64,000 bases of DNA from Promethearchaeota archaeon (lineage in GTDB: Archaea; Asgardarchaeota; Lokiarchaeia; Sigyniarchaeales; SOKP01), in assembly GCA_019057795.1 (NCBI GenBank), contig JAHLWS010000073.1, positions 64,001-128,000 of the forward strand, written 5' to 3'. A model generated the notes under the pieces. The model did no database searches and was not told the DNA's origin. It was given only the letters and a program-made list of their open reading frames with translations. Shown piece after piece: positions 8,026 through 44,981 of the stretch. How positions within the stretch are numbered: position 1 is the stretch's first letter; each line of letters begins with the position of its first letter. Both the position numbers and the translations under genes were made by a program.

Positions 8026-8374
8026 CTACTCTCCAGATTCTTCTTCAGCAGCTAATTCTTCCTCTAATTCTTCCAATGGAACGGGTGCCGGTGTTTAACT
8101 TGAATTCTGCGATATGCACGAATCCTGTAAGCATACTGTACCCGATCCATATAGCAATAATTGCTATTAATAATACCATAATCCAGAGTGGTAGAACTGT
8201 GAATAATCTCCAATCGAGCCAATCGATATTAAATATTCGGAAGACAGCGTCCCAATTTGGGTCCCCACCAAGAGTGCCAAACCATAAATCAACGACGCTT
8301 CCCAGAGTATAAACTACCGCGATAAGGATACCAAGGAGCATGACGATTGCGCCAATTATCTTATCTTTTGCCAT
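8026..8374 (-). CDS. Two-TM membrane protein (DPM2-like, 105 aa), spliced: exons 8374-8127 and 8095-8026
   Basis: Removing a 31-nt BHB insert gives ...WIGYSMLTTPAPVPLEELEEELAAEEESGE*, the C-terminus typical of this archaeal family (WIGYT.ATTPPP.PIEE.EEE). Exons 248+70=318 nt. Confidence 0.85.
8096..8126 (-). other. 31-nt BHB intron in a protein-coding gene
   Basis: Central helix GCTT/AAGT, bulges AC^A and TA^A, inner helix GGATTC/GAATTC, imperfect exonic outer helix; removal restores the frame. Confidence 0.85.
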
Positions 8375-8488
8375 TATCAATACCTTTGTTTTAAGTTTTT
8401 AGTATATTTTTTCAAGCACATTTACATTGCTTAATATTATTTTTAAAATTATATTAAATTAAAACCATTCGTTAAAGGACGAATTTTT

Positions 8489-8650
8489 ATGGATTACAAA
8501 ATCCTTAATGCCCTTAAAACTGGGCTTTCAGCTGATATTTGGCACCTCAAGCATTTTCGAACTCATAACGAAATTTTTTCTAACATTTATGAACCCAAAC
8601 CACTTTCTGATAGACTTAGAAAAGTACTCTTTAATTGTGATGTTTCATAA
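8489..8650 (+). CDS. Small hypothetical protein (53 aa)
   Basis: ATG...TAA ORF MDYKILNALKTGLSADIWHLKHF... with AAGGA upstream; lies between the DPM2-like gene and rbsK. Confidence 0.4.
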   Translation: MDYKILNALKTGLSADIWHLKHFRTHNEIFSNIYEPKPLSDRLRKVLFNCDVS

Positions 8651-8707
8651 ATTGATAATATAATGCGAAGAGAGTTCGAAAAATCGCGATTTTAAAGTGG
8701 TAAAATT

Positions 8708-9679
8708 ATGTCAAATAGCAACCAATACGTTCTAATTATTGGTTCGAGTAATATGGATTTAAACATATACTCGCAACGGTTACCGGAACCTGGTGAAACT
8801 GTAACTGGGGGCACATTTAAGCAATTCCTGGGAGGAAAAGGTGCGAATCAAGCGGTAGCTTCTGTGAGATCGGGGGCTAATACTATTTTTATTGGTAAAG
8901 TCGGCATAGATTCGTACGGAGACCAAATGATTTCTCAATTAAACAATGAAGGCGTGGACATAGAACATATTATAAGGGATCCTTACGAATCGAGCGGAAT
9001 CGCTTTTATAATGATAGACGAAAACGGAGAGAACGTGATTAGTGTAGCTCCTGGGGCAAATTTCAATTTAACGCCAGAAGACATTCGAATTAATTCCGAA
9101 GTCATTAAAGACGCTAACGCTTTGATCGTTCAGATGGAAATTCCCATTGATTCAATTGAAGAAATTTTTAAAATAGCAGTTCAAGGGAAGGCTGTAAAAA
9201 TTCTTAATCCTGCGCCGTTAAAACCTATAAGTTTATCAATTTTGAGAAATATTGATGTAATAATCCCCAACGAGGGAGAACTACTACGTTTACATTCGCT
9301 TCTAAATCTTAAAGAGTTAGTTGGCAAATCTAAAGGTAAAATTATTCAAGCTTCAAAAGATATTTCAAAATTAGGAGTTAAAACAATCGTAACTACATTA
9401 GGTAGTAAAGGATGTATGGTATATAGCGCTATAGAAGATAAAATTACTGAAATACCCGCTTTTAAGGTTAAACCCGTTGATACAGTAGGCGCTGGAGATT
9501 GCTTCAACGGAGTTTTAGCAAGCAAGTTAAATCAAGGGGAAGATTTAATCACTTCGGTAAAGTATGCAACAGTTGCTGCCTCAATAGCAGTAACGAGGAA
9601 AGGAGCGCAAGAATCAATGCCATTTATTGATGAAATTGAAGCACGCTTCAAAAAATATATAGATATTTATGTGATATAG
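8708..9679 (+). CDS. rbsK: Ribokinase (PfkB family)
   Basis: GSSNMDL, PGETV, GGKGANQAVA, PNEGE, DTVGAGDCFNG, GAQESMP. Confidence 0.95.
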   Translation: MSNSNQYVLIIGSSNMDLNIYSQRLPEPGETVTGGTFKQFLGGKGANQAVASVRSGANTIFIGKVGIDSYGDQMISQLNNEGVDIEHIIRDPYESSGIAFIMIDENGENVISVAPGANFNLTPEDIRINSEVIKDANALIVQMEIPIDSIEEIFKIAVQGKAVKILNPAPLKPISLSILRNIDVIIPNEGELLRLHSLLNLKELVGKSKGKIIQASKDISKLGVKTIVTTLGSKGCMVYSAIEDKITEIPAFKVKPVDTVGAGDCFNGVLASKLNQGEDLITSVKYATVAASIAVTRKGAQESMPFIDEIEARFKKYIDIYVI

Positions 9680-9699
9680 ACAATGTAGGTGTTAAAAAG

Positions 9700-10374
9700 A
9701 TGTTAGAAGAGATAATTCAACCTGAGAAAGGCACAAATCTTAGAAAAAATGGGCAAGAAGAACTAACAATTTTGATAGATTCAAATGCTCTAAAAAAAAT
9801 ATTTCTTATAAATGGAACCATATTTTTCACTCAAAATTTAAACACATCTAATCTAGTTGTTAAACCAAACGATTATTACATGATAATTAATAAAGGAGAT
9901 GAGGAAATTAATGTAAAATATAGTATCGATATTTCTAGTCATATGGTAATTTATGAACCTTATCTGTACGAATCGTCTAAAAAAGAAATTTTTAATCTAA
10001 TTCGGTTTAGCAAGAAATATAGCGTTCCAGATGGATACATCGACACTTTAGCTAAGTGGTACAGTATTAAATTCACATATCCTAATTATAATTTAATATT
10101 TATTAAACCGAAGATAGGAATCTCCATTCAAACTCACAAATTTAGAAGTGAAACATGGAAAGTATTGAAAGGCAAACCAATAATAATTAACGGGAATAAA
10201 GTACATTATTTTGTTGAAAATGGAACAGAGTTTTTAAACGCAAAAATGACTTACCATTCCGTTATAAATCCAAATAACAATCCTGAACAATTTGTTTTAA
10301 TAGAAGAAAAATGGAGCGGTGAATTCGACGAAGAAGATATAATAAGAGCGTTCAACCCCAATAATTATCATTAA
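9700..10374 (+). CDS. Cupin-domain protein (mannose-6-phosphate isomerase type II C-terminal-like)
   Basis: ISIQTHKFRSETWKVLKG...HSVIN...FDEEDIIR resembles the SLQxHxHRSEHW...EDDIVR cupin. Confidence 0.7.
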   Translation: MLEEIIQPEKGTNLRKNGQEELTILIDSNALKKIFLINGTIFFTQNLNTSNLVVKPNDYYMIINKGDEEINVKYSIDISSHMVIYEPYLYESSKKEIFNLIRFSKKYSVPDGYIDTLAKWYSIKFTYPNYNLIFIKPKIGISIQTHKFRSETWKVLKGKPIIINGNKVHYFVENGTEFLNAKMTYHSVINPNNNPEQFVLIEEKWSGEFDEEDIIRAFNPNNYH

Positions 10375-10607
10375 TTATTATTCCTGAAAGTAAGAATTTA
10401 CTACTCATTTTAACCGATTATATAAGAGATTTTGAGATGATATAGTTTTCCTTGGAGTTCACATTCCAACCTTTTAAATTTTGTGTTTTTAGTTCCTCTG
10501 TTTTAATAAAATTAAAATTTGATAGATAACTTCTATCATTACACGAAGTAATAAAAGTGTAAAAAAAAACATTATAAATTAAATGGAACAAGTAGATTGG
10601 TGGAAAA

Positions 10608-11141
10608 ATGGCTCCAAATGAAGAACTGAAAGATGGAGAACAGAAAGAAACGAAAACAGAAGATGCTGCAAAAGAATCTTCCAAAGAATCTGAAGAAGTA
10701 AAAGATACCGAAGAATTAGATCTTGCAAAAGAAAGAGATCGTCTTAAATTTCATTACAGAGGTCATACATTAGACGAATTAAAGAGAATGAATATGGACG
10801 CGTTTATTCAATTATTACCAGCACGAGCGCGAAGATCTCTAAAAAGAGGATTACCTCCTAGACAGAAAAAGCTCCTTGAAAGGCTAAGACGAGCATACAG
10901 AGCTAAAAAAAGAGGAAAAGATCTTCTTACGCGAACACATGTGAGAGATATGTTGATTTTTCCTGAGATGGTAGGTTTGAAAATAGGCGTCTATAACGGA
11001 AAACAATATGAAGTTGTTGATGTAAAACCTGAAATGATTGGACATTACTTAGGAGAGTTTTCACTCACTAGAAGGCGCGTTCAACATGGTTCTCCCGGAA
11101 TTGGGGCCACACGTTCAAGTAAATATGTTCCTTTAAAGTAA
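10608..11141 (+). CDS. rps19: 30S ribosomal protein uS19 with acidic N-terminal extension
   Basis: [58 protein letters not shown]. Confidence 0.97.
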
Positions 11142-11183
11142 TTTATATGATAATAATATAATAACTAATTGAGATGATATAAA

Positions 11184-11663
11184 ATGCCTAACTGGGGTTA
11201 TTCCTTTAGCGAAGAAAAATACGATGTAGATAGGTTAGCAAAAGCTTCAGGGAGAGATTTACGGATAAAGCCAAAACCCTCAAGAGAAATTTGTGCCGTG
11301 ATAAATGGTATGAAATTGGACCAAGCTAAAGGGTTTCTTGAAAAAGTTATTCAGTTAAAACAATCAGTGCCTTTCAGAAGACATAAAAAAAAACAAGCTC
11401 ATAGAAAAGATTTAAAACAATTCAATTGGTATGCCGGTAGATATCCCCAAAAAGCGGCCGCAAGAATCTATGAACTTCTCACTTCCGTCGAATCCAACGC
11501 AGAATATAAAGGCTTAGACGTCGATCAATGCAGGATTATTCACGCTGCTACGCATAGGGGTCGAATCATAAAGCGCTACATTGAACGCGCTCACGGTCGA
11601 TCGACCGCAAAATTTAGGCATTTAAGTCATGTAGAAATTGTAATTTACGAATTTCCAAGTTAA
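11184..11663 (+). CDS. rpl22: 50S ribosomal protein uL22
   Basis: AKASGRDLRI, VPFRRH, AGRYPQKAA, NAEYKGLD, RAHGRS; operon order. Confidence 0.97.
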   Translation: MPNWGYSFSEEKYDVDRLAKASGRDLRIKPKPSREICAVINGMKLDQAKGFLEKVIQLKQSVPFRRHKKKQAHRKDLKQFNWYAGRYPQKAAARIYELLTSVESNAEYKGLDVDQCRIIHAATHRGRIIKRYIERAHGRSTAKFRHLSHVEIVIYEFPS

Positions 11664-11703
11664 TAAAAATAAATTAATAAAAAAAAGTTAAATATTAAAG
11701 ATA

Positions 11704-12516
11704 ATGACTCCTTTGGCAAAACATTTCATTGAACAGGGCATCAAGTTGATGCAAATTAACGAATTCTTGCGCTCAGAGTTTGTTAGAGCTGGATTTGCAG
11801 GTATTGACATGCAACAGACACCACTCGGCGTTAGAATCACTCTAAAGACCTCCCGTCCAGGCCTCGTCATTGGAAAGGGCGGCAAACGTATTCAAGAGAT
11901 TACGGATATCTTACAAGAAAAATTTGACCTGGAATTACCCCAGATAGAGGTAGAAGAGGTTTCTAACCCCGATTTAAACGCCCAAATTATGGCTGAGAGG
12001 CTAGCGTATAGTCTCGATAGAGGAAGGCATTATAGAAGGGCAGGTTATTACATATTACGTAAAATTATGGATTCTGGCGCAAGGGGTACAGAGATTATAG
12101 TTTCGGGTAAGGTCACTTCACAACGCGCCAGGACAACTGTGTTTAGAGCGGGTACAATGAAAAAATCGGGCCAACCTGCTCAAGTAGGTGTGGACAAAGG
12201 AGTAGCTCAATGCGTTCAGAAGAGTGGAACTCTTGGGATCATAGTAAAAATTATGCAAGCGGACATAAGAATGGGAGACACAGTTAAAATTAATAATGAA
12301 GCACTAGCAACAGTGCAAGCAAAAAAGGCAGCAGAATTAGCCAAAACGAGAGCAGAGAAAGATTACGAAATTAGCGTAGAAGAAGGAGAACTCACCGAAG
12401 TAGAAAAAGAATTATTCGAAGAAGTAGAAGAAGAAGAAATTTCTGAAATTTCGCTGAAGCCAGAAAAAGAAGACGAAGAAAAAGATAATGAAAAGGAAAC
12501 AAAAGGAAAAAAGTAA
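11704..12516 (+). CDS. rps3: 30S ribosomal protein uS3 with acidic C-terminal tail
   Basis: KH domain RPGLVIGKGGKRI, NPDLNAQIMA, GARGTEIIVSGK. Confidence 0.97.
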   Translation: MTPLAKHFIEQGIKLMQINEFLRSEFVRAGFAGIDMQQTPLGVRITLKTSRPGLVIGKGGKRIQEITDILQEKFDLELPQIEVEEVSNPDLNAQIMAERLAYSLDRGRHYRRAGYYILRKIMDSGARGTEIIVSGKVTSQRARTTVFRAGTMKKSGQPAQVGVDKGVAQCVQKSGTLGIIVKIMQADIRMGDTVKINNEALATVQAKKAAELAKTRAEKDYEISVEEGELTEVEKELFEEVEEEEISEISLKPEKEDEEKDNEKETKGKK

Positions 12517-12531
12517 AAAAGAGTGTAAAAG

Positions 12532-12741
12532 ATGGATATTATTACCGCGGCAAAAGTCCGAGAAATGGACGAACGAGAAAGGGAGCGAACCCTATTAACG
12601 TTAAGAGAAGAATTAATGATGTTATACAGCCAACAAACGGGTGGTGGTATTGCTGATAATCCCGCAAAGGCAAAACTTTTAAGGAAACAAATTGCAAGAG
12701 TTCTTACAGTAAAAAATGAAATGAAAACGTTGAATGTATAA
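12532..12741 (+). CDS. rpl29: 50S ribosomal protein uL29
   Basis: LREELM...NPAKAKLLRKQIARVLTVKNE. Confidence 0.95.
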   Translation: MDIITAAKVREMDERERERTLLTLREELMMLYSQQTGGGIADNPAKAKLLRKQIARVLTVKNEMKTLNV

Positions 12742-13034
12742 TGATAAGTCCAAAATATTTGATTTACCACGATTTAATTGGCTTTAAGGCGTACGCTAAA
12801 CTTAAATCAAAATCAAATAGTACCACATTTTCGGATATTGGTATGATAATTGACGATACACGAAATATGTTAATATCTGAAAAAAATAATACAATAAAAA
12901 AGTATATCAAAAAAGATTATATTTTTAGATTCAAACTTGAAGAAGGAACGTTAGAATTAAATGGATCTAAAATTGTTGGCGTTCCTGAAAACAGATTAAG
13001 AAGTTTAAAAAAAAAGAAGTGGTTGAGAAAATAA
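12741..13034 (+). CDS. rnp1: RNase P protein component 1 (Rpp29/Pop4)
   Basis: HDLIG, GMIIDDTRNML, IFRF, G..IVG.PENRL; canonical position between L29 and S17. Confidence 0.9.
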   Translation: MISPKYLIYHDLIGFKAYAKLKSKSNSTTFSDIGMIIDDTRNMLISEKNNTIKKYIKKDYIFRFKLEEGTLELNGSKIVGVPENRLRSLKKKKWLRK

Positions 13035-13035
13035 A

Positions 13036-13386
13036 ATGAGCGTTCGAAATATCGGTATTCCCGGAGTAAATCCTCCAAAAGCGCGTGAATGTAGCGATAA
13101 GGATTGTCCTTTTCACGGAAATACACGAATAAGAGGTAAGATTACTCAAGGAGTAGTAGTTAATAAAAAATCAAAAAACACTGTAATTGTTAGACAAGAT
13201 TATGTTCAATTTGTTAAGAAGTATCAACGATATGAAAGGCGTAATTCGCGTCTTGCATGTCATTTACCCGAATGTTTGACTCCCGAAATTCAAGTAGGAG
13301 ATTTAGTGCGTGTAGGAGAAAGCAGAAAACTCTCAAAGACGAAAGCATTCATAGTATTAGATAAAATAAAGAGTGGGGCGATGTAG
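13036..13386 (+). CDS. rps17: 30S ribosomal protein uS17
   Basis: CSDKDCPFHG, RIRGK, KKYQRYERR, GESRKLSKTK. Confidence 0.97.
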   Translation: MSVRNIGIPGVNPPKARECSDKDCPFHGNTRIRGKITQGVVVNKKSKNTVIVRQDYVQFVKKYQRYERRNSRLACHLPECLTPEIQVGDLVRVGESRKLSKTKAFIVLDKIKSGAM

Positions 13387-13812
13387 ATGGGAACTAGAAG
13401 AAAAATGGGAAGAAAAACGCAGATGAAAGCAAGAACTAGTTACGGTGTACAAAATGGTACAAAAATTTTTATTACTGATAATTCTGGTGCAAAGATTGCA
13501 CAAATAATTAACGTCGACCATGCAAAAACCCGTTTAAGAAGGTTGCCAAAAGCTTCTGTAGGGTCAGTTTGCACAGTAACCGTTAAAAAAGGTCGCCCTG
13601 ACTTACGCGGAACTATATTGAAAGCTGTAATCGTTAGACAAAAGATGATATATAGGCGAGTAGACGGCACAAGATTATCTTTTGAAGATAATGCAGGCGT
13701 TTTAATAACCAAGGAAGGCGATCCTAAAGGTACAGAAATTCGAGGTCCAATTGCGAGGGAAGCTGCTGAATTATTTCCACGTTTAGCATCCATTTCTTCA
13801 TTAATTATTTAA
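13387..13812 (+). CDS. rpl14: 50S ribosomal protein uL14
   Basis: DNSGAK, VKKGRPDLR, AVIVRQ, FEDNAGV, GPIAREAA. Confidence 0.97.
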   Translation: MGTRRKMGRKTQMKARTSYGVQNGTKIFITDNSGAKIAQIINVDHAKTRLRRLPKASVGSVCTVTVKKGRPDLRGTILKAVIVRQKMIYRRVDGTRLSFEDNAGVLITKEGDPKGTEIRGPIAREAAELFPRLASISSLII

Positions 13813-13837
13813 TTAAGATCATAAGGTTAAAAAAAGT

Positions 13838-14269
13838 ATGAAAGCAAAATCAAAACAGCCTAAAAAGCAGCGGAAAGCATTATTTAATTATAAGAATCAT
13901 CAAAGGTCAAAACTATTATCAACAAGAATTGCTGATTTTTTAAGAGAGGAGTATGGGATTAGAACACTTCCCCTTAGAGTTGGTGATGGGGTTAAAATTG
14001 TGAAGGGTGAATTCAAAAATTTTGAGGGAGAAGTTATGGAGATCACGAAAAACCAGAGAACAAAAATTAAGGAAGCAACTTTTGATAAAGCAGATGGAAC
14101 GCAGTTTCATCCAGCTATTCACATATCGAATTTGGTAATAACAAAATTCGCTAAAGAAAAAAAAATGGACCCCTGGCGGGCAAGTATGATTGACAGGAAA
14201 TACATTTTTGGGATAAGGGAAGAAGAGCTAAGAGCTCCAAAAAAACAAAAAGAGGAGGGGGCGAAATAG
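13838..14269 (+). CDS. rpl24: 50S ribosomal protein uL24
   Basis: SKQPKKQRK, LREEYGIRTLPLRVGDGVKIVKG (KOW), IHISNLVIT. Confidence 0.96.
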   Translation: MKAKSKQPKKQRKALFNYKNHQRSKLLSTRIADFLREEYGIRTLPLRVGDGVKIVKGEFKNFEGEVMEITKNQRTKIKEATFDKADGTQFHPAIHISNLVITKFAKEKKMDPWRASMIDRKYIFGIREEELRAPKKQKEEGAK

Positions 14270-15022
14270 ATGACTAGACATGGTGGTTCAAGAGCGTTAA
14301 AAAGACTCAACACGCCTAAATTTCTACAAATAAAAAGAAAGCACGGCAAGTTCTTTATGAAGCCATCACCTGGTCCTCATCCAAGGAGATTCTGCTTGCC
14401 TTTACTCCATATTGTCAGGGATCTTCTGAAGATAGTCGATAACCATAGAGAAGCGAAAAAATTAATAGGACTCGGTAATTTTAAAGTAGATGGAAGGGTA
14501 GTAAAAGATACAACATATCCAGTAGGTTTAATGGATGTGCTAAGTATAGAAAAAATGAACAAAAATTATCGAATTCTGCCAGATTCTCACTATGGATTAA
14601 TACTGCATGAAATAACTGAAGCAGAAAGTACTTTTAAATTATGTCGAATAACCCAAAAAACCACGATAAAGGGAGGACATATTCAATTAAATTTGCACGA
14701 TGGAAAGAACATTCTAATACTAGTTAAAGACCCAAGTAACACTAAAGAGGATATTTACAAAAGAATGGATGTTTTAAAAATTTCCGTTCCTGAGCAAGAA
14801 ATTCTTAAAGTGTTAAAGTTCAAGGAAGGAAATTTAGCAGTAATCATGTCCGGGAAAAATATTGGACAGTTAGGGAAAATTAAAAATATATTAAAGCGTT
14901 TTGGTCCAAAAGCAAGTACGGTTTCCATTCAGCATAACTCAGAGCATACTGAAACCCTTTTAGACTATACATTTATTATAGGAGAGGATCAATCCGAAAT
15001 TAGTTTACCAAAAATAGAATAA
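14270..15022 (+). CDS. rps4e: 30S ribosomal protein eS4
   Basis: PSPGPH, VDGRVVKD, PVGLMDV, QLNLHDGKN, GKNIG. Confidence 0.97.
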   Translation: MTRHGGSRALKRLNTPKFLQIKRKHGKFFMKPSPGPHPRRFCLPLLHIVRDLLKIVDNHREAKKLIGLGNFKVDGRVVKDTTYPVGLMDVLSIEKMNKNYRILPDSHYGLILHEITEAESTFKLCRITQKTTIKGGHIQLNLHDGKNILILVKDPSNTKEDIYKRMDVLKISVPEQEILKVLKFKEGNLAVIMSGKNIGQLGKIKNILKRFGPKASTVSIQHNSEHTETLLDYTFIIGEDQSEISLPKIE

Positions 15023-15043
15023 AATAAAGAAGTGAATTCAATT

Positions 15044-15649
15044 ATGTCAGTTATAGCAGCAAAAAAAACTCAGAAAAAATCACGAAAAGAACTAGAAAAA
15101 ATATTTGAAGTGATGTGGACTCATCCAATGAAGAAACCTTACTTAGAAAAAGTGGTTCTAAATATTGGAGTAGGTGTTGGGGGTGAAGAATTAGAAAGAG
15201 CCTTTACGGTATTACAAACGATCTCTGGTAAAACTCCTGTAAAAACTCTTTCTAAGAAAAACGTAAAAGAATTCAACTTGCGGATAGGACGTCCAATTGG
15301 AACGATGGTAACTATACGGAGAAAAGAAGCTGAAAAATTGCTTAAAAGACTATTTGTTGTAAATAACGATAAAATGTTAAGAAAAAGTTTCGATAATTAT
15401 GGTAATTTTGGTTTTGGTATTACTGAACATATCACCATTCCAGGAATCGAATATGATAACCTGATTGGCATCTGGGGTCTTGATGTTGTTGCTCGAATAG
15501 TTAGACCTGGTATGAGAGTTAAGTACAGAAGAAAAGGTCGAGCTAAAGTTCCTAAACACCATTATGTTTCTCGAGCGGAAGCTCAATATTTTTTAGAAAA
15601 AAATTTTGGAATCGAAATAGTAGATAAATTAGAATTAGAATATATGTAA
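15044..15649 (+). CDS. rpl5: 50S ribosomal protein uL5
   Basis: HPMKKPYLEKVVLNIGVG, FDNYGNFGFGITEHI, GIWGLDV; ATG at 15044 preferred over GTG at 15032. Confidence 0.96.
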   Translation: MSVIAAKKTQKKSRKELEKIFEVMWTHPMKKPYLEKVVLNIGVGVGGEELERAFTVLQTISGKTPVKTLSKKNVKEFNLRIGRPIGTMVTIRRKEAEKLLKRLFVVNNDKMLRKSFDNYGNFGFGITEHITIPGIEYDNLIGIWGLDVVARIVRPGMRVKYRRKGRAKVPKHHYVSRAEAQYFLEKNFGIEIVDKLELEYM

Positions 15650-15672
15650 AGAAAAAAAAAGTTTTGATAATT

Positions 15673-15819
15673 ATGCCGCAAGGTAAGATAGGTAAGGGTC
15701 AAAGAGAATGTAGACGCTGCCATACACATAGAGGCGTTATAAGAAGGTATGGTTTATATATATGCCGTCGTTGTTTTTATGAAATTGGAAAAGAAATTGG
15801 ATTTTATAGGTACGATTAA
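15673..15819 (+). CDS. rps14: 30S ribosomal protein uS14 (zinc-binding)
   Basis: Below ORF-track cutoff. MPQGKIGKGQRECRRCHTHRGVIRRYGLYICRRCFYEIGKEIGFYRYD, located between L5 and S8. Confidence 0.96.
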   Translation: MPQGKIGKGQRECRRCHTHRGVIRRYGLYICRRCFYEIGKEIGFYRYD

Positions 15820-15827
15820 AATTAGGA

Positions 15828-16226: not shown

Positions 16227-16248
16227 TATTGAAAGAAGGTAATAGTAA

Positions 16249-27756: not shown

Positions 27757-27912
27757 GGCCCCCGGCGGTCGGAATTTGATTTGATCATTTCGATCTCATA
27801 CGATAAGTGGTCTCTGACGCTGGGCTTCAAACCCAGTTATCCTGCGGAGGGATAGGGGTTCGATATGGAAAGAGATTTGTTCTTTTCGAGGAAATCCCCC
27901 TGGGGGCCGCCA
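27757..27912 (+). tRNA. selC: tRNA-Sec (anticodon UCA) with two BHB introns (27774-27806 in the D-arm, 27865-27894 in the T-loop); mature length 93 nt
   Basis: 9-bp acceptor GGCCCCCGG/CTGGGGGCC + GCCA; anticodon arm CTGGG-CTTCAAA-CCCAG; long variable arm; 4-bp T-stem; after splicing a 7-bp D-stem GTCGGAG/CTCTGAC and T-loop TTCGATT; adjacent to SepSecS. Confidence 0.93.
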
Positions 27913-30293: not shown

Positions 30294-31181
30294 ATGGTCT
30301 TTATCAATTCTGATGGAAAATTTAATGAAAACACTTATTTAATTGATGCCGAACTGTATAGAATGAAAGGAAATCTCGCAATTTATATAATCGAAAACGA
30401 TAATATGCGAATAATGATTGATACTCCTTCAGATTTAATGGTTAGGAAATTTGTAAAAAAAATTAAAGAATTCGGATTATATCCCATTCATAAAATAATA
30501 TTGACTCATTCTCATTTTGATCATGTTCAAGGAGTAGGAAAATTAAAAAAATTGATGCAAGGAACTAAAATTGAAGTATTAGCTTCTGAAAGAGCAATAA
30601 ATAACTTGAAAAATCCTGATAAACTAAATAAAGAATTTGGATACAATGTGAACCCTATAGATAATGTTACTCCATTGAAAGAAGGAGATATAATTGATGT
30701 TAATGGTTTAAAGCTCGAGATAATGAACTTTTTTGGTCATACTCAGGATTCTATAGCAATATTAGATCGTAAAAACAAAAATATATTTATTGGCGATGCG
30801 ATAATAAATATGTATGAACGTGAAACTTTTAGCCCTACTTTCATGTCTTTTGACTTTAACGAATCTGAACTCCTAAAAACTTTTCAAAAACTAAGAAATC
30901 TTAAAGAAGATTTATGTTCTATCTCTCTAAGTCATTTCGGCATATGGAAAGATGAAGATTTCGATTTTGTATTAAATGAAATGGAAGATCAACACTTTAA
31001 AACAAAAAATACATTAATTGAATGGTATAACGAAAATCCTGACATAGGATATATAACTCTTAAATATCACGAAACTTTTACTCCTAATTCGACAATCCAC
31101 ACTAAAGAAAACATGCTCGGTTTAGAACTTGTGATTTCATTGCTTATTAACGGCTTAAAGATAAGTGGTTATATTAAATGA
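30294..31181 (+). CDS. MBL-fold metallo-hydrolase
   Basis: THSHFDHVQG, GHTQDS, IGDA, HFG; GGAGG SD. Confidence 0.9.
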   Translation: MVFINSDGKFNENTYLIDAELYRMKGNLAIYIIENDNMRIMIDTPSDLMVRKFVKKIKEFGLYPIHKIILTHSHFDHVQGVGKLKKLMQGTKIEVLASERAINNLKNPDKLNKEFGYNVNPIDNVTPLKEGDIIDVNGLKLEIMNFFGHTQDSIAILDRKNKNIFIGDAIINMYERETFSPTFMSFDFNESELLKTFQKLRNLKEDLCSISLSHFGIWKDEDFDFVLNEMEDQHFKTKNTLIEWYNENPDIGYITLKYHETFTPNSTIHTKENMLGLELVISLLINGLKISGYIK

Positions 31182-31214: not shown

Positions 31215-31394
31215 TGGGCCATCGGGGACTTGAACCCCGGATCTCAGGCTTTTACTGATATGGACATTTTAAATTATTTTGTCTGTCCATGGGTCAATTA
31301 TAAGACCTGCGCTTGTTGACCAAGCTTCAATTAAGCCTTGTTAACCATTTCAGTAAACAAGATAAATTCTCGTTTAAAACTGAGCTAATGGCCC
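31215..31394 (-). tRNA. tRNA-Ile (anticodon UAU) with three BHB introns (31377-31348, 31341-31315, 31297-31250); mature length about 75 nt
   Basis: Acceptor GGGCCAT/ATGGCCC + A73; T-arm CGGGG-TTCAAGT-CCCCG; anticodon arm CAGGT-CTTATAA-GCCTG; D-loop AGTTTGGTTA after removing two BHB inserts. Confidence 0.88.
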
Positions 31395-36511: not shown

Positions 36512-36673
36512 TCAGATTTTTATTCTGTATTTGTACTTTTACGAAATTCTATAAATTAAGTTAATATTAACTTTTTAATACCTTTAAATTCAAAAAAAAT
36601 GCTCTCATTAAAGAAATTTTTAAATGATTACAATTATATGATAAATATAAAAATTAGAAAGTGCTAAATAACC

Positions 36674-37576: not shown

Positions 37577-37600
37577 CATTACATTACTAGCCTTAGAGAA

Positions 37601-38236
37601 ATGACAAATCGCAAAAAAAACTCTATTGACATTAAATCTGAGCTTGAATCTGAAATATTTGCAACAGTAAATACAATACTTAATTTAAATCAAAAATATC
37701 AAAAAGGTATTTTAAAAGAAATTTTTTTTCAAAGATCGATCAAGAGTGCTACGAACGATTTATTGGAGCTTAACTTATCGTTAAATAAGCATAATATAGT
37801 CCTTTCAAAACTATTGAATCACATGAGTTTTACTAATGATTATTATAAAGCTATTGACATTCTCAACAAAATATCTTCTCTTAACTTTTCTACTAGCCAA
37901 TTCTCGGAATCACTTAGTTCTTCTATTCTTGAAATCCCAGGGATTACTTCGGAAATTACAGCCTCTTTTATAACGCTAATGGACGCGCTAAAATTAGATG
38001 GTTTTGATAATAACGAGCTAATTTTTGTATTTTTTAAAGATTTGAAGAAAAATTTTGATAGATTTCCCGGTTTAGAATTAGACAAGATAAAATTGCAAAA
38101 AATCTTCGAAGAAATCTTACAAAACAAAGAAAAAATTGTTAATAATAAAAATTATAGAGATTCCATAGCAGACGATTTGTATGTAGTGTTTAAAGAATTC
38201 AAAAAAAAATATAATATTGGGAAGCTGCAAAAATAA
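37601..38236 (+). CDS. Vps28-like ESCRT-I subunit
   Basis: ESEIFATVNT..NL..KY.KG (Vps28 N-terminal hairpin) and SEITASFITLMDALKL (Vps28 C-terminal FITxMDxL[KR]L signature). Confidence 0.8.
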   Translation: MTNRKKNSIDIKSELESEIFATVNTILNLNQKYQKGILKEIFFQRSIKSATNDLLELNLSLNKHNIVLSKLLNHMSFTNDYYKAIDILNKISSLNFSTSQFSESLSSSILEIPGITSEITASFITLMDALKLDGFDNNELIFVFFKDLKKNFDRFPGLELDKIKLQKIFEEILQNKEKIVNNKNYRDSIADDLYVVFKEFKKKYNIGKLQK

Positions 38237-38320
38237 TAAAATTAATTAAGTTTACATGCTTTAACACCATATCAATAAAAACTTCAAATTGAATAAACTG
38301 AAAAACTAAAGGTAATCTTC

Positions 38321-38596
38321 TTGCCAAGGCCGGGTTTAAGATCAAAAGCTCAAAAACGAAAAAAGCTGAAAACTCCTGGAACTCAGAGCGTTTCTCATTA
38401 TTGGAGAAAAAAACCTAGTAAGGCTCAATGTGCCATTTGCAAAAAATCGCTTCAAGCTGTACCAAGATTAAGACCAGCGAAAATGAAAAAAACAAATAGG
38501 GTTTCCAGAAGAGCAAATCGACCTGAAAGCGGAAGATACTGTGCTAAATGTTTGCAAACCTTACTAAAAGAATCTGTGTGGCAAGCAGAAGTTTAA
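38321..38596 (+). CDS. rpl34e: 50S ribosomal protein eL34
   Basis: KTPG, CAICKKSLQAVPR, RANRP..G.YCAKC; TTG start. Confidence 0.95.
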   Translation: MPRPGLRSKAQKRKKLKTPGTQSVSHYWRKKPSKAQCAICKKSLQAVPRLRPAKMKKTNRVSRRANRPESGRYCAKCLQTLLKESVWQAEV

Positions 38597-38681
38597 TCCG
38601 ATCTTGGAATTTCAAAAATATTAAATAATTTCTGGTTTTAATTTCTTTTAATAGCTAAATTCAATTTTGAGAAATGTAAAA

Positions 38682-39218
38682 ATGATAATTACGATATCTG
38701 GGCTTCATGGGACAGGAAAGAGCGTAATTGCTAAACTAATGGCAGAACGCCTCGGGATACTCTACTACTCAACGGGACAAGCGTTTCGAGATCTTGCAAA
38801 AGAAAAGAACATGTCTTTAGAAGAATATACGAATTTTGTCGAAAATCATCCTGACATTGACAAAGATTTAGATAATAAAGTCGTTAACATGGCAAAAAAA
38901 GGTAATATTATTATTGATAGCCAATTAAGCGGACATATTCTCAAATCCATAGCAGATTTTAGAATACACTTAACTTGTCCATTAAAAATACGTGTTAAAA
39001 GAATGTCAGGGAGAGATCAAACATCTTTCGAAGAAAAATTAAAAGAAACAACATTAAGGGAAAAATCTGAATTGGAACGCTTCAAAAACCTCTATAACAT
39101 TGATTTAAGCGATAAAAACTTGATTAACGAATTTTTTGATTTAATTATTAACACAGAAAATTTATCTATTGAAGAAGTGTTAGCTAAAATCCTATCTGAG
39201 TTAAAAAATCTATTTTAA
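38682..39218 (+). CDS. cmk: Cytidylate kinase (archaeal type)
   Basis: IITISGLHGTGKS, STGQAFR, IDKDLD, RE.SE..RF..LYNID; located between L34e and L14e. Confidence 0.93.
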   Translation: MIITISGLHGTGKSVIAKLMAERLGILYYSTGQAFRDLAKEKNMSLEEYTNFVENHPDIDKDLDNKVVNMAKKGNIIIDSQLSGHILKSIADFRIHLTCPLKIRVKRMSGRDQTSFEEKLKETTLREKSELERFKNLYNIDLSDKNLINEFFDLIINTENLSIEEVLAKILSELKNLF

Positions 39219-39355
39219 ACTTTTTCTACGAAAAAAATCATAAAAAATTTATAATTGAAATTATTCCTTAATTTACGATAGATCGTTTATCTTTTCTGAA
39301 AATTAAAAAATTCAGTAATGATAAATTTATTGAAAATAATTTGGTGACAAATTAT

Positions 39356-39628
39356 ATGAGCGTATACGATATTGGAAGAATTTGCGTTAAAACTATGGGA
39401 AGGGAAGCCGGAAACTATTGCGTTGTCGTCGATATCATCGATAAAAATTATATTTTAGTTGATGGTTTGGGAATTCGCCGAAGAAGAGTAAATTATAAAC
39501 ATATAGAACCGACAACAGACACGATTGAAATCAAAAAAGGTGCTTCACATGAGAATGTCGAAACTGCTATTAAAAAAGCAAAATTAGAAAAAAAAATGAA
39601 AGAGACAGTTTCCATTCCTACAAAATAG
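39356..39628 (+). CDS. rpl14e: 50S ribosomal protein eL14
   Basis: IGRICVKTMGREAG..CVVVDIID.NYILVDG..RRRRVN.KHIEPT. Confidence 0.96.
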   Translation: MSVYDIGRICVKTMGREAGNYCVVVDIIDKNYILVDGLGIRRRRVNYKHIEPTTDTIEIKKGASHENVETAIKKAKLEKKMKETVSIPTK

Positions 39629-39709
39629 TTATTTAACTTCTAAAAAACCATAAAAATAGAAATATTGCTGAGCGTCGCCATTGTGCGTCGTTAGCGCTAA
39701 TTTTTTTTT

Positions 39710-39812
39710 GCAGACATTGCCTAGCCTGGTACGGCGCCGGCTTGGAGCGGAAAAACGGTCCCAGAAAGCCGGTGTGTGAAAGCATCCGAGGGTTCGAATC
39801 CCTCTGTCTGCG
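39710..39812 (+). tRNA. tRNA-Ser (GGA) with a canonical 19-nt 37/38 BHB intron (39748-39766)
   Basis: Acceptor GCAGACA/TGTCTGC + G73, long variable arm, T-loop TTCGAAT; BHB helix TTGG/CCAG with bulges AG^C and AA^A. Confidence 0.93.
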
Positions 39813-39869
39813 CTTTATTACTTATAGAAATAAGGAAAGTAATAGAATCAAAAAATCTCTTTTATTAAT

Positions 39870-40544
39870 TTAAACGTCAGGAAATTCCATAGCTTTAGCT
39901 TTCCCACCACCCATCATCTGCTCCATTCCTCCCGATGCTTGTGTCTGTAATTTAAAAATTCTTTGAAGAAGCGTGTTCACACCAAAACTACATAGAAAAT
40001 ACCAAGCAGTAAAATTTATCCAACCAGCTTCTAATCTAATAGTTCTGGCAACGCCGTACACAAGGGCAGTCCAGGGATATACCGTAGAACCCGTAGTACC
40101 CGCCATCATGTTGCCTATGAGCACTACATCGTTAGCATTCATTGGAGACAACGCAATGGGGTTATTCAAGAAAACTCCTCTTACTACTGTAAATATGATT
40201 ATCATTGGAACGAATGTTATGCAACTGGGCAACATGCGCCTTAAAGCCATTTTCTGCTGTGATTGTTTTACCATCGAATCCAATCTTTCCCACCTCTTTC
40301 TTAACTTGTTATATTTTTCTGGATCCGTTTCAGATAATTCAATGATTTTTGCTTTTTCTTCGTCATGAGCCTTTTTTATAACTTGTTTTCTATTAATTTC
40401 ATCAGTATCAATTAACCATTTAGTTAGTCCAGTACTAATTACTGCCGTTATAGAAGCCATTAATAATATAAAAATCATGGACCCAGGCGGGAAGCTAATC
40501 CAATCTAAAAAAGCATTTGATCCTTGTAATAATAAGAAAAGCAT
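39870..40544 (-). CDS. DUF106 / EMC3-TMCO1 (Oxa1 superfamily) membrane insertase
   Basis: TM, cytosolic coiled coil, P..ITFVPMIIIF, WYFLCSF; directly downstream of secY. Confidence 0.88.
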   Translation of the reverse strand: MLFLLLQGSNAFLDWISFPPGSMIFILLMASITAVISTGLTKWLIDTDEINRKQVIKKAHDEEKAKIIELSETDPEKYNKLRKRWERLDSMVKQSQQKMALRRMLPSCITFVPMIIIFTVVRGVFLNNPIALSPMNANDVVLIGNMMAGTTGSTVYPWTALVYGVARTIRLEAGWINFTAWYFLCSFGVNTLLQRIFKLQTQASGGMEQMMGGGKAKAMEFPDV

Positions 40545-40641
40545 AGTTATATTGAAGTAATCTTAATAATTTTTTAAACTTTTCAGATTAAAATTTTATA
40601 ATAAAAAAATGTGTTACCATTTCTTTTGGAGAAGATTCTCA

Positions 40642-42096
40642 TCAATCCATGCCTAAGAAAGCGCGCATGCCCGGATATTGCTGTGCCGCCATTTCTTTTG
40701 CAATTTGCTCAGAGTATTGATGCACGATGCCTATAGCTATCAAAAGTCCCGTGCCTGAAGTCAACGCACCTAGCGAATCTGCGAAGAAACTCATTACTGC
40801 GATTATAATGCCGTTTATAATGATCAAAGTTGGAATATATCGCTTTAAAATCCGCTCAATTATTTTGTCCGAACTTCGAAATCCGGGAATCTGCATCCCA
40901 GAATCTATTATTTGCTGGGCTATATCGCGCGGCGCAAGTCCTGAGACTTCGACCCAAATCTTACCGAGCATAATGCACAGAAATATAAATATAATTAGAT
41001 ATATTATTGCTTTGAAGGGGTCAGCTAGTAACTCCAACAATCCTTGAGGAGGGGTAAGGTAATAAAGTAAACACCCTGGTAGTGGGACTAAATAATCACC
41101 ACCTCCCCCCGTTGGAACACTGTCGAATTTACCTATTAAATCAAGGAACCATCTAGTATCGTCATTTCTAAAACCAGAATTAGGTCCAGCAATCATTTGC
41201 CCGAAAAATAGAAAATTGGCGTATAGGGCGTTAACTAAAATAACAGGGATATTTGAAACATATAGTAACTTCATTGGATATTTCCCCTTGAAACCTCTAT
41301 ACCCTTTATAGGCTAACGGAATTTCGACTCTAGTAGACTCGAACCAAATAACTATTAGAAATATGCCTAAAGTCGTAATTCCTCCAAAAATGGAAGGTAG
41401 TCGGTCATGCCTCCAAAACAGTTCAGCTGTATCTATATTAGGATTCGTCAAAGATTGAATGAAAGCAATAACAATTCCTCTTGCTTCATTAGTTTCACCT
41501 ACTCCAATAAAACTAAATAAATTCCAAAATATTTGTCCAGCAACACCCGTAGCGATAAATAAGGAGATTCCGCTTCCAATTCCCCAACCTTTTTGTAGTA
41601 ACTCATCGAGTAAGATAATGACGACTCCAGAAAAAAGTAATTGCAAAAATATAAACGTCATAGCCTGAAGGTCTAACGGTCCAAAAGCACCTCCGATTAT
41701 ATATGCGATGATATTGAACACAGTCAAAAACATTGCGAATACTTTTTGAGAACCGCTAAACATAGCCCGATCGTATGGATCGCTCAAATCAACTTTTATG
41801 ATTTTGGAACCTAAGAGTAATTGCATTATTAATCCTGCCGTTACTATTGGGCCTATACCTAATTCTGTAAGCGTACCTTTCTGACTTGCTAAAATAACTC
41901 TTAACCAATAATAATAATCTGTGGTGGCTTGAGTGGTTACTCCATAAAGCGGAATATTTGACATTATTAAATATATTATTAATGCGAGCCCTGTCCACAT
42001 TAACTTTTCTTTGAAACTTACTTCTCTCTGAGGCTGTTTGATTTCAGGCATTACCCGTACAAAAGGAGAGAAGAATTTGAGGAATTTTCCGGTCAT
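40642..42096 (-). CDS. secY: Preprotein translocase SecY/Sec61alpha
   Basis: FKEKLMWT, GTLTELGIGPIVTAG, DELLQKGWGIGSGISLFIA, YPMKLLYVSNIP, IPGFRS. Confidence 0.98.
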   Translation of the reverse strand: MTGKFLKFFSPFVRVMPEIKQPQREVSFKEKLMWTGLALIIYLIMSNIPLYGVTTQATTDYYYWLRVILASQKGTLTELGIGPIVTAGLIMQLLLGSKIIKVDLSDPYDRAMFSGSQKVFAMFLTVFNIIAYIIGGAFGPLDLQAMTFIFLQLLFSGVVIILLDELLQKGWGIGSGISLFIATGVAGQIFWNLFSFIGVGETNEARGIVIAFIQSLTNPNIDTAELFWRHDRLPSIFGGITTLGIFLIVIWFESTRVEIPLAYKGYRGFKGKYPMKLLYVSNIPVILVNALYANFLFFGQMIAGPNSGFRNDDTRWFLDLIGKFDSVPTGGGGDYLVPLPGCLLYYLTPPQGLLELLADPFKAIIYLIIFIFLCIMLGKIWVEVSGLAPRDIAQQIIDSGMQIPGFRSSDKIIERILKRYIPTLIIINGIIIAVMSFFADSLGALTSGTGLLIAIGIVHQYSEQIAKEMAAQQYPGMRAFLGMD

Positions 42097-42359
42097 AGTT
42101 TATCAGCACAAAACCTTTAGTGAGTATAATCCTTTTTAGTTAAAATAAAAGTTTCTCAGTTTAGAAATGTAACTTAAAAAAAAATGAATTTAAAAAAAAC
42201 TTTTTGATTTAATAAGTTCGTTTAAGCAGATATTTTGTTTCTTTATATAATTCAAAAACATTATCGTTAAAAAATAGTAGAAAAAAAATAATTTAAAAAA
42301 ATTTTGAAATAAATTTTGCTTATACTTTTGCTTTGTTTTGCTGAAGAGTCTTAACCCGT

Positions 42360-42659
42360 TTAAAATAACGAGCCAATTCCCGTAGGTTCTTCCTCAACTT
42401 CTTCTTCCTTTTCCTTCTTCTTTTTCTTGGAGGCTGCTTTTGCAGACACTGAAGAAGCAACCGGAGCGGCCATCACTGGAGCTGCGGCGGCAGAACTGAT
42501 TATTGATTCAATGTCAGCCTCCTTAAGCCCTGCTACTACTTTTGTAAGTTGAGCTTTATCAACAGTTACATCTACAGCTTTTAATATCTTTTCGATGTTT
42601 GCTTCTGTAATTTTCTTATTTGCTTTGTTAAGCAGTAACGCAGCATATATTGATTCCAT
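42360..42659 (-). CDS. rpl12: Ribosomal stalk protein P1 (aL12)
   Basis: IYAALLL, Ala-rich hinge, acidic tail GIGSLF. Confidence 0.95.
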   Translation of the reverse strand: MESIYAALLLNKANKKITEANIEKILKAVDVTVDKAQLTKVVAGLKEADIESIISSAAAAPVMAAPVASSVSAKAASKKKKKEKEEEVEEEPTGIGSLF

Positions 42660-42732
42660 CTTTTATACCTCTTTTTTTTTATCCAATTATTATTAAAATT
42701 TGTGTTTATTTATTTTATTTAAAAAAATTAAT

Positions 42733-43689
42733 TTAATTACCAAATAAGCCTCCAATTCCAACTTCTTCTTCCTCATCTTCTTCTTTTTTGCCTTCTTCTT
42801 TCTTAGTTGAAACATGTAGGTCTTCTCCAAGTACTATAGCCTTGATAGTGATAGCATTTGATACGGCTTTTCGGATATATTCGTCCCTCATATCGTCAAA
42901 ATAAACAGGTAATTCAAAAAGAATTCCAAGAGCCTCTCGGTGTGCTTTTTGGATTAACGGTTCAATCGTTTCTTTATCGATAATGCCTAGTTCTAAAGCC
43001 AAACTTCGTGCGCCGAAGTACGCAAATGCAAGCTCTTGTTGGAATTGTTCCATATCCATATACAGAATTTCCTCAGGAATTATTTCACCGTCGCTCCACG
43101 CGTAATGGATTTTAATAAGCGATTTAATTGGAGCTACACCTAACTTCTTTAAGACTGCTGCCTGTTTTACGTTAACGTAATCTCCAGCTGAGTGCGTTCG
43201 CGTATCTTCTCTAACCCAAATCGTATCGTTCTGGATTTTGGTTGGAAGCCGGAGCGTCATGTTTAATTCACTGATAACTTGTCCCGTGGGCAATCCTGTG
43301 TCCCCCTCAGTAACCCAAATATCTACTGGCGTTATCTCGTTAGGTTTAGCAGAGACCATCCATTCATTTTCATTAAATATATTCTTTAATTCAAAGATAT
43401 CTATGTTGGTAAAACATAATGCGGATTGTCCTGAAATTTTTTCGGCGAGTTCATCTAAGTTGTCTTTTTTAGAATCGTGTTTATACTGTTCTACGGCTCT
43501 TAGTTGAAGCTTCTTTTTTGACATTCTTATGATTGCTTTCCCTCTTAAGATTTTTCGCATCTCTTGAATTTGCTTGTCGTTTAATTTAGCAACTTCTATT
43601 ACAGCAATGTTTTTATGTTTTTTAAACAAATCAACTAAATGAACAACTTCATCCAATTTCCATTGATGTATTTCTTTTTTTCTGATCAC
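42733..43689 (-). CDS. rpl10: Ribosomal protein uL10 (P0)
   Basis: QWKLDEV, QEMRKILRG, GDTGL, LKKLGV.P, C-terminal EEEVGIGGLFG. Confidence 0.95.
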   Translation of the reverse strand: MIRKKEIHQWKLDEVVHLVDLFKKHKNIAVIEVAKLNDKQIQEMRKILRGKAIIRMSKKKLQLRAVEQYKHDSKKDNLDELAEKISGQSALCFTNIDIFELKNIFNENEWMVSAKPNEITPVDIWVTEGDTGLPTGQVISELNMTLRLPTKIQNDTIWVREDTRTHSAGDYVNVKQAAVLKKLGVAPIKSLIKIHYAWSDGEIIPEEILYMDMEQFQQELAFAYFGARSLALELGIIDKETIEPLIQKAHREALGILFELPVYFDDMRDEYIRKAVSNAITIKAIVLGEDLHVSTKKEEGKKEEDEEEEVGIGGLFGN

Positions 43690-43693
43690 TATT

Positions 43694-44422
43694 TTACACC
43701 TCTATACCCTTCAAAAACTGTTCATCAATTTTTATTGGATGCCCCATTGTAGTTTTTAAAAACATAGATTTAATATTGTTATATTTATGAGGCATCTGAT
43801 CAGCAACGTACTCAACGACAGCTTTCATGTTTTCAAATATTTTATCCTTATCCATAGATTTTTTTCCTACTTTAACTTGAATACTTGGTTGCTTCTTTAA
43901 TTGAATTCGAATAACTTTTAAGTATCTCTCAATTGCCACGTTTAAATCACTCGGATTGGAAATAATACCATATCCACTTGGGAAAGGTTTCGGCATTTTA
44001 CCTAGCGGTCCAAGGAATCTCGCTAAATATCGAGCTACATTTGGCATCATTTTGTCTTCTACTACGAAGAAATTGTATTTCTTTACAAATTTTTTCTTAT
44101 ACTTTTTTTCTTCGTTATTTAGTTTGATTAAACCGTCTTTATCCATTGTTTCGAGCCCAAGATTCTTAGCTTCAAGAAGTATCTCGTCTGACGCAATTAC
44201 GCAGATGTTAGGCCTATCTTTAGTTATTATGTTATTAGGTAGGATTATTTCCTTATCGATCCTCTGCTTAGGGTCCTTGAGGTTAATGTCTTTCAAATTC
44301 ATAATGAGGTCAATTGATTCGTCAAATTTCCTGACTTTATCTTTAAAGCCTTCCTTTTTAATAATCGAATGTTTAATTGCAGCATCTAACGATTTTTTTA
44401 ATAGTTTGTCATCAATTTTCAT
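43694..44422 (-). CDS. rpl1: 50S ribosomal protein uL1
   Basis: RKFDESIDL..NLKDI, LGPLGKMPKP, VKVGK, NIKSMFLKTTMG. Confidence 0.96.
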   Translation of the reverse strand: MKIDDKLLKKSLDAAIKHSIIKKEGFKDKVRKFDESIDLIMNLKDINLKDPKQRIDKEIILPNNIITKDRPNICVIASDEILLEAKNLGLETMDKDGLIKLNNEEKKYKKKFVKKYNFFVVEDKMMPNVARYLARFLGPLGKMPKPFPSGYGIISNPSDLNVAIERYLKVIRIQLKKQPSIQVKVGKKSMDKDKIFENMKAVVEYVADQMPHKYNNIKSMFLKTTMGHPIKIDEQFLKGIEV

Positions 44423-44425
44423 TTT

Positions 44426-44981
44426 TTACAGCTCCCCCTTTATCATGTCGTCATATTCTCCATTCTCAATCTTTTTCTGAATTACTCGCGGGTCCTCGCC
44501 TTCTATTGTGGCTCCAATTGACAACACTGTCCCTATTACGGTCTTTACAGCAGTTTTGAAGGTTTTATCTAAAAAGATATCTTTTTTAGCGTTAGTAACG
44601 TTAACTACCTGTTCAAGAGTTAAATCTCCAATTTTTTCCTCAGAACTATTCGAACTCCCTTTTTCAGCGCCTAATTCTTTTAAAAGTAGTGAAGCTGTAC
44701 TTGGCGTCTCTACGAATATCTCAAACTGTTTTGTCTCAGGATCGCATTCGATTCTAACGGGTACCGTTAAACCTTTAAAAAGCATGGTTTTTTCGTTAAC
44801 TGCGTCCACTACGTCCTTGATGTTTGCATAGGAAATCGATTCAATTTCCGTTTATGCCAGTAGGACCTACAGCGGGACCTTTACATAAATAAAGCGATTT
44901 GCTTTATGTAATAGGCGGTCCTCCGCTCGCAGATCCCCCTGTAACTAGTGCCTTAACAATGATTTTGTTTGTTTTACTCAT
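44426..44981 (-). CDS. rpl11: 50S ribosomal protein uL11, spliced: exons 44981-44911, 44880-44852, 44823-44426 (165 aa)
   Basis: Spliced product MSKTNKIIVKALVTGGSASGGPPIGPAVGPTGINIKDVVDAVNEKTMLFKGLTVPVRI...; exons 71+29+398=498 nt; GAGG SD; first gene of L11-L1-P0-P1. Confidence 0.93.
44824..44851 (-). other. rpl11 intron 2 (28 nt, BHB, frame-shifting)
   Basis: Perfect central helix GCAT/ATGC, bulges AA^A and AA^A, inner helix GGAAATTG/CGATTTCC, outer helix GTCCT..TG/CA...AGGAC. Confidence 0.88.
44881..44910 (-). other. rpl11 intron 1 (30 nt, BHB, contains in-frame TAA)
   Basis: Outer helix GGACC/GGTCC, central helix GCCT/ATGT (one mismatch), bulges AT^T and AA^A, inner helix ATAAAGC/GCTTTAT. 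Confidence 0.85.

Follow-up and report, generated by a model that had tools for sequence, protein, structure and literature searches.

Interrupted genes in the window

The window analysed here, a stretch of 64,000 nt (G000:C73:64001-128000; coordinates without a contig name are window positions) from the draft genome of a Loki-type Asgard archaeon, carries nine short inserts with the bulge-helix-bulge (BHB) shape of tRNA introns. Six of them lie in three tRNA genes and three in two protein genes, namely a small membrane-protein gene and the only gene for ribosomal protein uL11. All nine are present where a preliminary description of this DNA had placed them, and its view of them as tRNA-type introns, in protein genes as well as in tRNA genes, is supported. 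The metagenome-assembled genome comprises 4.95 Mb in 87 contigs, with about 31% G+C and an estimated contamination of 7.5%; its nearest relatives come from marine-sediment and cold-seep studies. Two relatives with 93-94% protein identity, G005 and G020 (isolate ABR02), were used for close comparison.

Throughout, we applied a single cutting rule: each strand of a 4-bp helix is followed on its 3' side by a bulge of 3 nt, and the cut falls behind the second bulge base (carets below mark such cuts and the resulting exon junctions). In the required register, at least three of the four central pairs form in all nine window inserts and in ten of eleven further introns described below, the remaining one being intron 2 of the phosphofructokinase (PFK) gene with two of four. 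The inner stems of mRNA introns have 4-6 of 6 pairs, with the exception of PFK intron 1 (3 of 6). Outer stems range from one to five of five pairs, several introns being relaxed forms. The preliminary description gave seven inserts a size of 27-33 nt; by our boundaries six fall into this range and the seventh measures 25 nt. The 3' bulge pattern AA^N that it had noted for most inserts is seen in eight of nine, the last one reading TA^A.

The mRNA introns are 28-33 nt long and have 14-39% G+C, as against 35-47% in their flanks. A similarity search detected no sequence common to mRNA introns and tRNA introns, to the mRNA introns among themselves or to the rest of the genome, beyond chance-level AT-rich matches, and thus gave no evidence of copying; the two kinds of introns are linked by shape and size, without sequence likeness. 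The spread from tRNAs into mRNAs proposed in the preliminary description is a conjecture. Self-splicing group I and group II introns were considered and rejected: at 19-48 nt the inserts could not hold a ribozyme core, which takes hundreds of nucleotides, and a match to an Rfam intron family was not obtained anywhere in the window.

The uL11 gene

The uL11 gene (rpl11; 44426-44981, minus strand, ATG at 44981) is single-copy, with one match in the whole genome, and consists of three exons. Its C-terminal open reading frame (ORF) matches the Pfam families Ribosomal_L11 and the tail of Ribosomal_L11_N. Read from the start, the gene reaches VTGGSASGGPPI, runs into a TAA within a 30-nt insert, continues with GPAVGPTGIN over 29 nt, and meets a 28-nt insert that shifts the frame before IKDVVDAVNEKT. 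Intron 1 (44881-44910, minus strand; junction PPI^GP) is the in-frame insert with the TAA. Its outer helix is GGACC/GGUCC, its central helix GCCU/AUGU with one C.U mismatch, and its bulges AU^U and AA^A; in relatives the central helix at this site is fully paired (GCCU/AGGU). Excision by the rule yields GGPPIGPAVGPTGIN, the same as in insert-free relatives. The micro-exon that follows (44852-44880, minus strand, 29 nt) encodes part of (I)GPAVGPTGI(N) and also matches insert-free orthologues. Intron 2 (44824-44851, minus strand, 28 nt; junction GIN^IK) is frameshifting and has a central helix GCAU/AUGC, bulges AA^A and AA^A and an inner stem of 6 bp; insert-free relatives carry GGCATAAACATC here, which is exactly the predicted junction. 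The insert-free uL11 genes of the same genus read CCT ATT GGA CCT ... GGC ATA AAC ATC, exactly as predicted for both junctions. Peptides spanning predicted junctions would include, for example, PPIGPAVGPTGINIK.

The expectation that annotation pipelines misread such genes is supported by a mechanical ORF list, in which uL11 appears only as a protein of 127 aa; genes of this kind are probably shortened in, or absent from, present catalogues of Asgard genes.

Comparison of intron positions across relatives, as the preliminary description had suggested, covered 105 related uL11 loci and revealed presence/absence differences at four sites within about 60 nt, with inserts of 28-42 nt; 41 of the 105 loci are insert-free. 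The sites are I (VTGG^SAS, 32-42 nt), II (PPI^GP, 30-36 nt), III (PAV^GP, 28-30 nt) and IV (GIN^IK, 28-29 nt). Sites II and IV are occupied in this genome, and sites I and IV in G020 and G005, so that intron turnover is fast: relatives at 93-94% protein identity differ in their uL11 sites. Ten uL11 loci examined in other families of this order were free of inserts. The exon halves of the uL11 motifs are GGNCC repeats in Gly-Pro codons (GGPPxGPxxGPxG), and such exon helices plausibly account for the crowding of introns at 44824-44925, which looks like a hot spot set by the coding sequence.

Pairing at site IV is conserved in the register of the rule. Among 15 distinct homologues, 92% of the alignment cells are paired, whereas slid registers give 25-41%; compensatory changes occur at three pairs, none of 500 shuffles reached the observed pairing, and the central helix is paired in all 15 sequences. 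The stems of uL11 site III and of the GH38 intron described below vary compensatorily as well.

These data bear on another reading, in which the interrupted genes would be dead and the inserts either inactivating or products of the assembly, for which the draft state of a metagenome-assembled genome with its contamination estimate and the insert-free alleles in relatives might speak. We regard it as most improbable. Dozens of genomes, assembled independently in different studies, have the same inserts in the same places, the stems covary, and the exons of uL11, a single-copy and essential gene, are conserved despite stop-bearing and frameshifting inserts. Moreover, ordinary indels in a 641-kb comparison have poor BHB scores.

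The inserts could alternatively stay in the RNA and be skipped by hopping ribosomes, as in the translational bypass of phage T4 gene 60 and the bypass elements of yeast mitochondria. Being short (28-33 nt), hairpin-forming and often provided with a stop just past the 5' boundary, they do resemble bypass elements. However, neither the uL11 nor the membrane-gene boundaries have matched take-off and landing codons (at uL11 intron 2, take-off would be from AUA, whereas GCA precedes the resumed AAC). Inserts of the same type interrupt untranslated tRNA genes, and conservation tracks BHB pairing rather than codons. The chance that recoding explains the inserts appears slight indeed.

The membrane-protein gene

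The second interrupted protein gene of the window (8026-8374, minus strand, ATG at 8374) encodes a small membrane protein of about 105 aa when spliced, with no Pfam match. Its intron (8096-8126, minus strand, 31 nt) lies near the 3' end and is frameshifting; it has a central helix GCUU/AAGU, bulges AC^A and UA^A and an inner stem of 6 bp. Removal of the intron gives the C-terminus SMLTTPAPVPLEELEEELAAEEESGE before the stop codon, and the tail becomes TTPAPVPLEELEEELAAEEESGE, again up to the stop, once 8096-8126 is excised. This spliced tail is encoded in frame by 24 relatives that lack the insert; five of these belong to another family of the order. Genomes G009, G014, G007 and G011 have inserts at this site. 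Two of these, G014 and G007, have a second insert site nine codons downstream, where the rule yields the insert-free sequence CTCGAAG^AATTGG. Upstream of the gene, an intergenic stretch of 116 nt (8485-8600) is missing from G005 and G020.

Other interrupted protein genes

The inserts extend beyond the window, as the preliminary description had supposed: eleven further introns were verified in nine genes on six contigs, bringing the protein-gene set to at least 14 introns in 11 genes on seven contigs (C11, C43, C62, C65, C70, C73 and C78). On the minus strand, a 29-nt insert in fwdB (C62:7154-7182) separates the parts of the motif CPLCGTFC, restored by its removal, and another of 29 nt in a ferredoxin-domain gene (C43:23304-23332) leaves CTGCGNCVVGCA^EGALAII. 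All others listed here are on the plus strand. Excision restores HWDRE^WY in a GH38 mannosidase (C65:69693-69722, 30 nt), CG^ICGSD in a zinc-dependent alcohol dehydrogenase (Zn-ADH, C78:126080-126109, 30 nt), HPHP^QYGGN in an alpha/beta hydrolase (C70:60614-60646, 33 nt) and CPN^CGEK in Elf1 (C70:101393-101424, 32 nt). The PFK gene is interrupted twice, by intron 1 (C70:27462-27492, 31 nt; restoring GGG^DCPGLN) and intron 2 (C70:27778-27807, 30 nt; restoring IGG^DDT). In acr3 (C78:170202-170232, 31 nt) and in a thiolase gene (C11:43775-43804, 30 nt) no restored motif is named, and the junctions read ...TTMGL^FWEVPVML and ...HDAFSG^QEVISYEELGF, respectively.

Where Pfam families match at the cut, in the GH38, ADH, ferredoxin-domain and hydrolase genes, the domains are truncated exactly at the inserts: the GH38 match of exon 2 opens at position 14 of the profile, that of ADH_N at 15, and Fer4_6 breaks off at 20 of 24. 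The GH38 insert is a clear 30-nt BHB element in five genomes (including this one), has an unclear structure in three and is absent from nine; the ADH insert is present in four genomes and absent from eight. For both genes, the insert-free sequences equal the predicted splice. Altogether, in four genes (uL11, membrane protein, GH38 and ADH) the junctions given by the cutting rule are precisely those of insert-free orthologues in the same genus.

For ten of the 14 verified mRNA introns, the distance to the start or stop codon of the host gene is no more than about 65 codons; because of this position near gene ends, what gene callers drop is a short terminal exon, first or last, and the gene is not split in the middle. 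A candidate intron in a cold-shock gene was not resolved by the criteria used here and was left out. The gene cbf5, host of a known crenarchaeal mRNA intron, is not among the hosts found (uL11, membrane protein, fwdB, ferredoxin-domain gene, GH38, ADH, hydrolase, acr3, PFK, thiolase and Elf1), cbf5 itself not having been looked at.

tRNA genes

ARAGORN detected no tRNA in the raw window, and Rfam found only tRNA-Ser along with a weak tRNA-Sec match that shows a 31-nt insertion in the T-loop. When ARAGORN was rerun after removal of the inserts by the cutting rule, the same rule that gives the mRNA junctions, all six tRNA inserts dropped out to leave callable tRNAs. The gene for tRNA-Sec (UCA) (27759-27911, plus strand), then called as tRNA-SeC(tca), has two non-canonical introns, one in the D-arm (27774-27806, plus strand, 33 nt) and one in the T-loop (27865-27894, plus strand, 30 nt). 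Without its introns, its acceptor stem measures 9 bp, its T stem 4 bp and its D stem 7 bp. Standard tRNA finders miss this gene, and therefore selenocysteine use in the lineage could be under-called.

The gene for tRNA-Ile (UAU) (31217-31394, minus strand; called as tRNA-Ile(tat) after removal) has three introns on the same strand. One lies in the D-loop (31348-31377, 30 nt) and is absent from G020; a second (31316-31340, 25 nt) has a relaxed motif, the weakest of the set, with the least certain boundaries; and the third is in the anticodon loop (31250-31297, 48 nt). Brute-force combinations of introns gave noisy ARAGORN calls and were replaced by manual parsing and comparison with G020. The UAU anticodon is unusual among archaea, and its sequence is kept in G005 and G020.

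The gene for tRNA-Ser (GGA) (39710-39812, plus strand; 42.5 bits with the Rfam tRNA model, tRNA-Ser(gga) in ARAGORN after removal) contains a canonical anticodon-loop intron of 19 nt (39748-39766, plus strand; BHB score 4,2,8). Over the whole genome the tRNA model finds 28 tRNAs, 13 of which are at least 94 nt long. Since it misses both multi-intron tRNA genes of the window, the real tRNA intron load must be higher. In G005 (contig C24, ~21722; locus L114) there is a 19-nt BHB-type insert (score 4,4,5) that is absent at G000:C70:125006; the equivalent site lies inside a tRNA match (C70:124971-125071), and the insert is probably a polymorphic tRNA intron.

Genome-wide searches and intron number

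The genome-wide BHB scan proposed in the preliminary description was run with an ORF-rescue filter and shifted-cut controls, and coding-potential and no-start-codon filters were also tried. At the stringency of true introns it returned about 987,000 motif-like matches and no excess over the controls. This lack of power is due in part to the true introns themselves, which lie 18-63 codons from a gene end and form only 10-13 of 15 pairs. An apparent excess of A at the first exon base failed in later examples. As the motif scan cannot show it, the conclusion that the introns exceed chance rests on comparison, in which insert-free orthologues carry the predicted sequence.

A motif-free census of indels against G005 and G020 covered the window and 641 kb elsewhere; it is blind to introns shared by both genomes compared, as most of the others are. 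The census recovered the known polymorphic introns and one new intron, in G005; no further intron specific to this genome was found in the 641 kb compared with G005. The new intron (G005:C11 ~770, locus L079) is 31 nt long, has a perfect BHB score (4,6,5) and splits the CxxC of a NifU-like gene; it occurs in G005 only, the equivalent gene at G000:C56:2137 being insert-free. One 32-nt difference in the window (30545-30576, compared with G020:C16 ~24082) was rejected as an intron: it is a deletion in G020 that frameshifts an MBL-fold (HxHxDH) gene, intact here and in G005. As to the earlier suggestion of many mRNA introns, the evidence points to tens per genome, an estimate, and not to hundreds.

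Splicing enzymes and proposed mechanism

As the preliminary description had advised, we looked for the enzymes of such splicing, and the genome encodes two EndA paralogues and one RtcB, all above Pfam cut-offs. The EndA paralogues, of 200 and 201 aa and encoded in the regions of C69:74212-74436 and C74:72339-72587, are 32% identical, and each has an N- and a C-terminal EndA domain (tRNA_int_endo). As read from their pairwise alignment, one keeps Tyr/His/Lys and the other is without the His. This fits a pair of catalytic and structural subunits of the two-subunit, broad-specificity type; Asgard EndA has been assigned as (alpha-beta)2, with a loop linked to broad specificity (PMC5829648).

We infer from the inserts, their junctions, the covariation and the enzymes that excision takes place at the RNA level, and that these are the enzymes performing it. 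The insert would be transcribed together with its host gene and, with the flanking exon, would fold into a 4-bp helix between two 3-nt bulges, enclosing an AU-rich hairpin. EndA, probably a two-subunit alpha-beta enzyme, would cut after the second base of each bulge, and RtcB would ligate the exons. The machinery that serves heavily interrupted tRNA genes would in this way also have to process at least 11 mRNAs, including the sole uL11 mRNA, for functional proteins to be made. The introns sit at places where the exon half of the motif can be provided by the coding sequence and are gained and lost quickly, close relatives differing at single sites.

Several observations weigh against this interpretation. 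Some motifs are relaxed: the central helix contains a C.U or G.A mismatch in uL11 intron 1 and in ADH and has two of its four pairs in PFK intron 2, and there are weak outer helices. Single-sequence folding sometimes misses the central helix, with Z scores of -2.8 and -3.4 for the uL11 introns and -0.65 for the membrane-gene intron; having a moderate signal or none, it was not used as proof. The genome-wide motif scan is without statistical power, as described above. Finally, the unspliced frame of the membrane-protein gene is open to 8045 and would end in a different, basic tail, so that for this gene alone the frame does not prove a need for splicing.

The relaxed motifs, and the frequent folding of the inner hairpin only, might suit a different nuclease or ligase that recognises the hairpin instead of EndA and RtcB. 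We consider this very unlikely, if somewhat less so than either ribosome hopping or dead genes: in the four genes compared, every junction is predicted to the base by the register that the 4-bp helix and the two 3-nt bulges define, the tRNA introns of the same genome have identical geometry, and the central helix of uL11 site IV stays paired in all 15 homologues. Splicing of these mRNAs by EndA and RtcB is, on the comparative evidence, very probably the correct explanation.

Known systems and significance

The pre-mRNA intron of cbf5 in Crenarchaeota was reportedly the subject of work by Watanabe in 2002 and Yoshinari in 2006. It is a short BHB intron in a coding sequence, thought to be cut by a hetero-oligomeric EndA (Yokobori 2009, PMC2738675), and like the introns described here it is gained and lost among related species. 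The crenarchaeal case concerns one gene with one intron in another phylum, whereas at least 11 genes of a single genome are interrupted here, with up to two introns per gene, a 29-nt micro-exon and four alternative sites within some 60 nt of uL11. For archaeal pre-mRNA, a 2025 paper on EndA cites the cbf5 work alone (PMC12397907).

Multiple non-canonical tRNA introns are known from Asgard archaea and Thermoproteales (PMC11291895; bioRxiv 10.64898/2026.10.13.758758; PMC5829648). They share with those in our genome the motif, similar sizes and the enzymes, are sited where the exon can form the motif, and likewise show repeated gains with no clear arrival route. In contrast, those reports deal with tRNA genes only, and mRNA is absent from the 2026 preprint, the intron-rich classes of which are Jordiarchaeia and Atabeyarchaeia, unlike the Loki-type genome studied here. 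Our literature search for BHB introns in archaeal mRNA returned only crenarchaeal cbf5 (PMC2738675), and for Asgard archaea only work on tRNA introns (PMC11291895 and the 2026 preprint). The inserts in these Asgard protein genes are real and, as far as this search shows, unpublished.

A comparison with eukaryotes leads to the idea of a control layer. Unconventional splicing of HAC1 and XBP1 mRNA is carried out by IRE1 together with RtcB or Trl1 and is regulated by stress. It resembles the process proposed here in the spliceosome-free removal of a short mRNA intron by a structure-recognising protein endonuclease, in RtcB-type ligation and in a C-terminal frame change, as would occur in the membrane-protein gene. 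It differs in that the nuclease is IRE1 and not EndA, in the stem-loop motif, and in the stress regulation, which belongs to HAC1/XBP1. Were splicing used as a switch, the membrane-protein gene would produce two forms, one with an acidic tail (spliced) and one with a basic tail (unspliced), and EndA activity would gate the output of genes such as uL11, PFK and fwdB. We think it unlikely that splicing serves in this way; if it did, an XBP1/HAC1-like control layer would exist in the closest prokaryotic relatives of eukaryotes. Such a layer, and any link to the origin of eukaryotes, is speculation.

Until now, mRNA splicing by protein enzymes in archaea rested on cbf5 alone. In the genome described here it would be needed for a core ribosomal protein, for enzymes of glycolysis and C1 metabolism, for a transporter and for a transcription-elongation factor, and the host lineage is the one closest to eukaryotes. 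Protein genes are interrupted here, with micro-exons and rapid turnover of introns, in the absence of a spliceosome. The four adjacent uL11 sites, with their present and absent alleles, offer a ready system for the arrival and loss of introns, a question left open by the recent census of tRNA introns.

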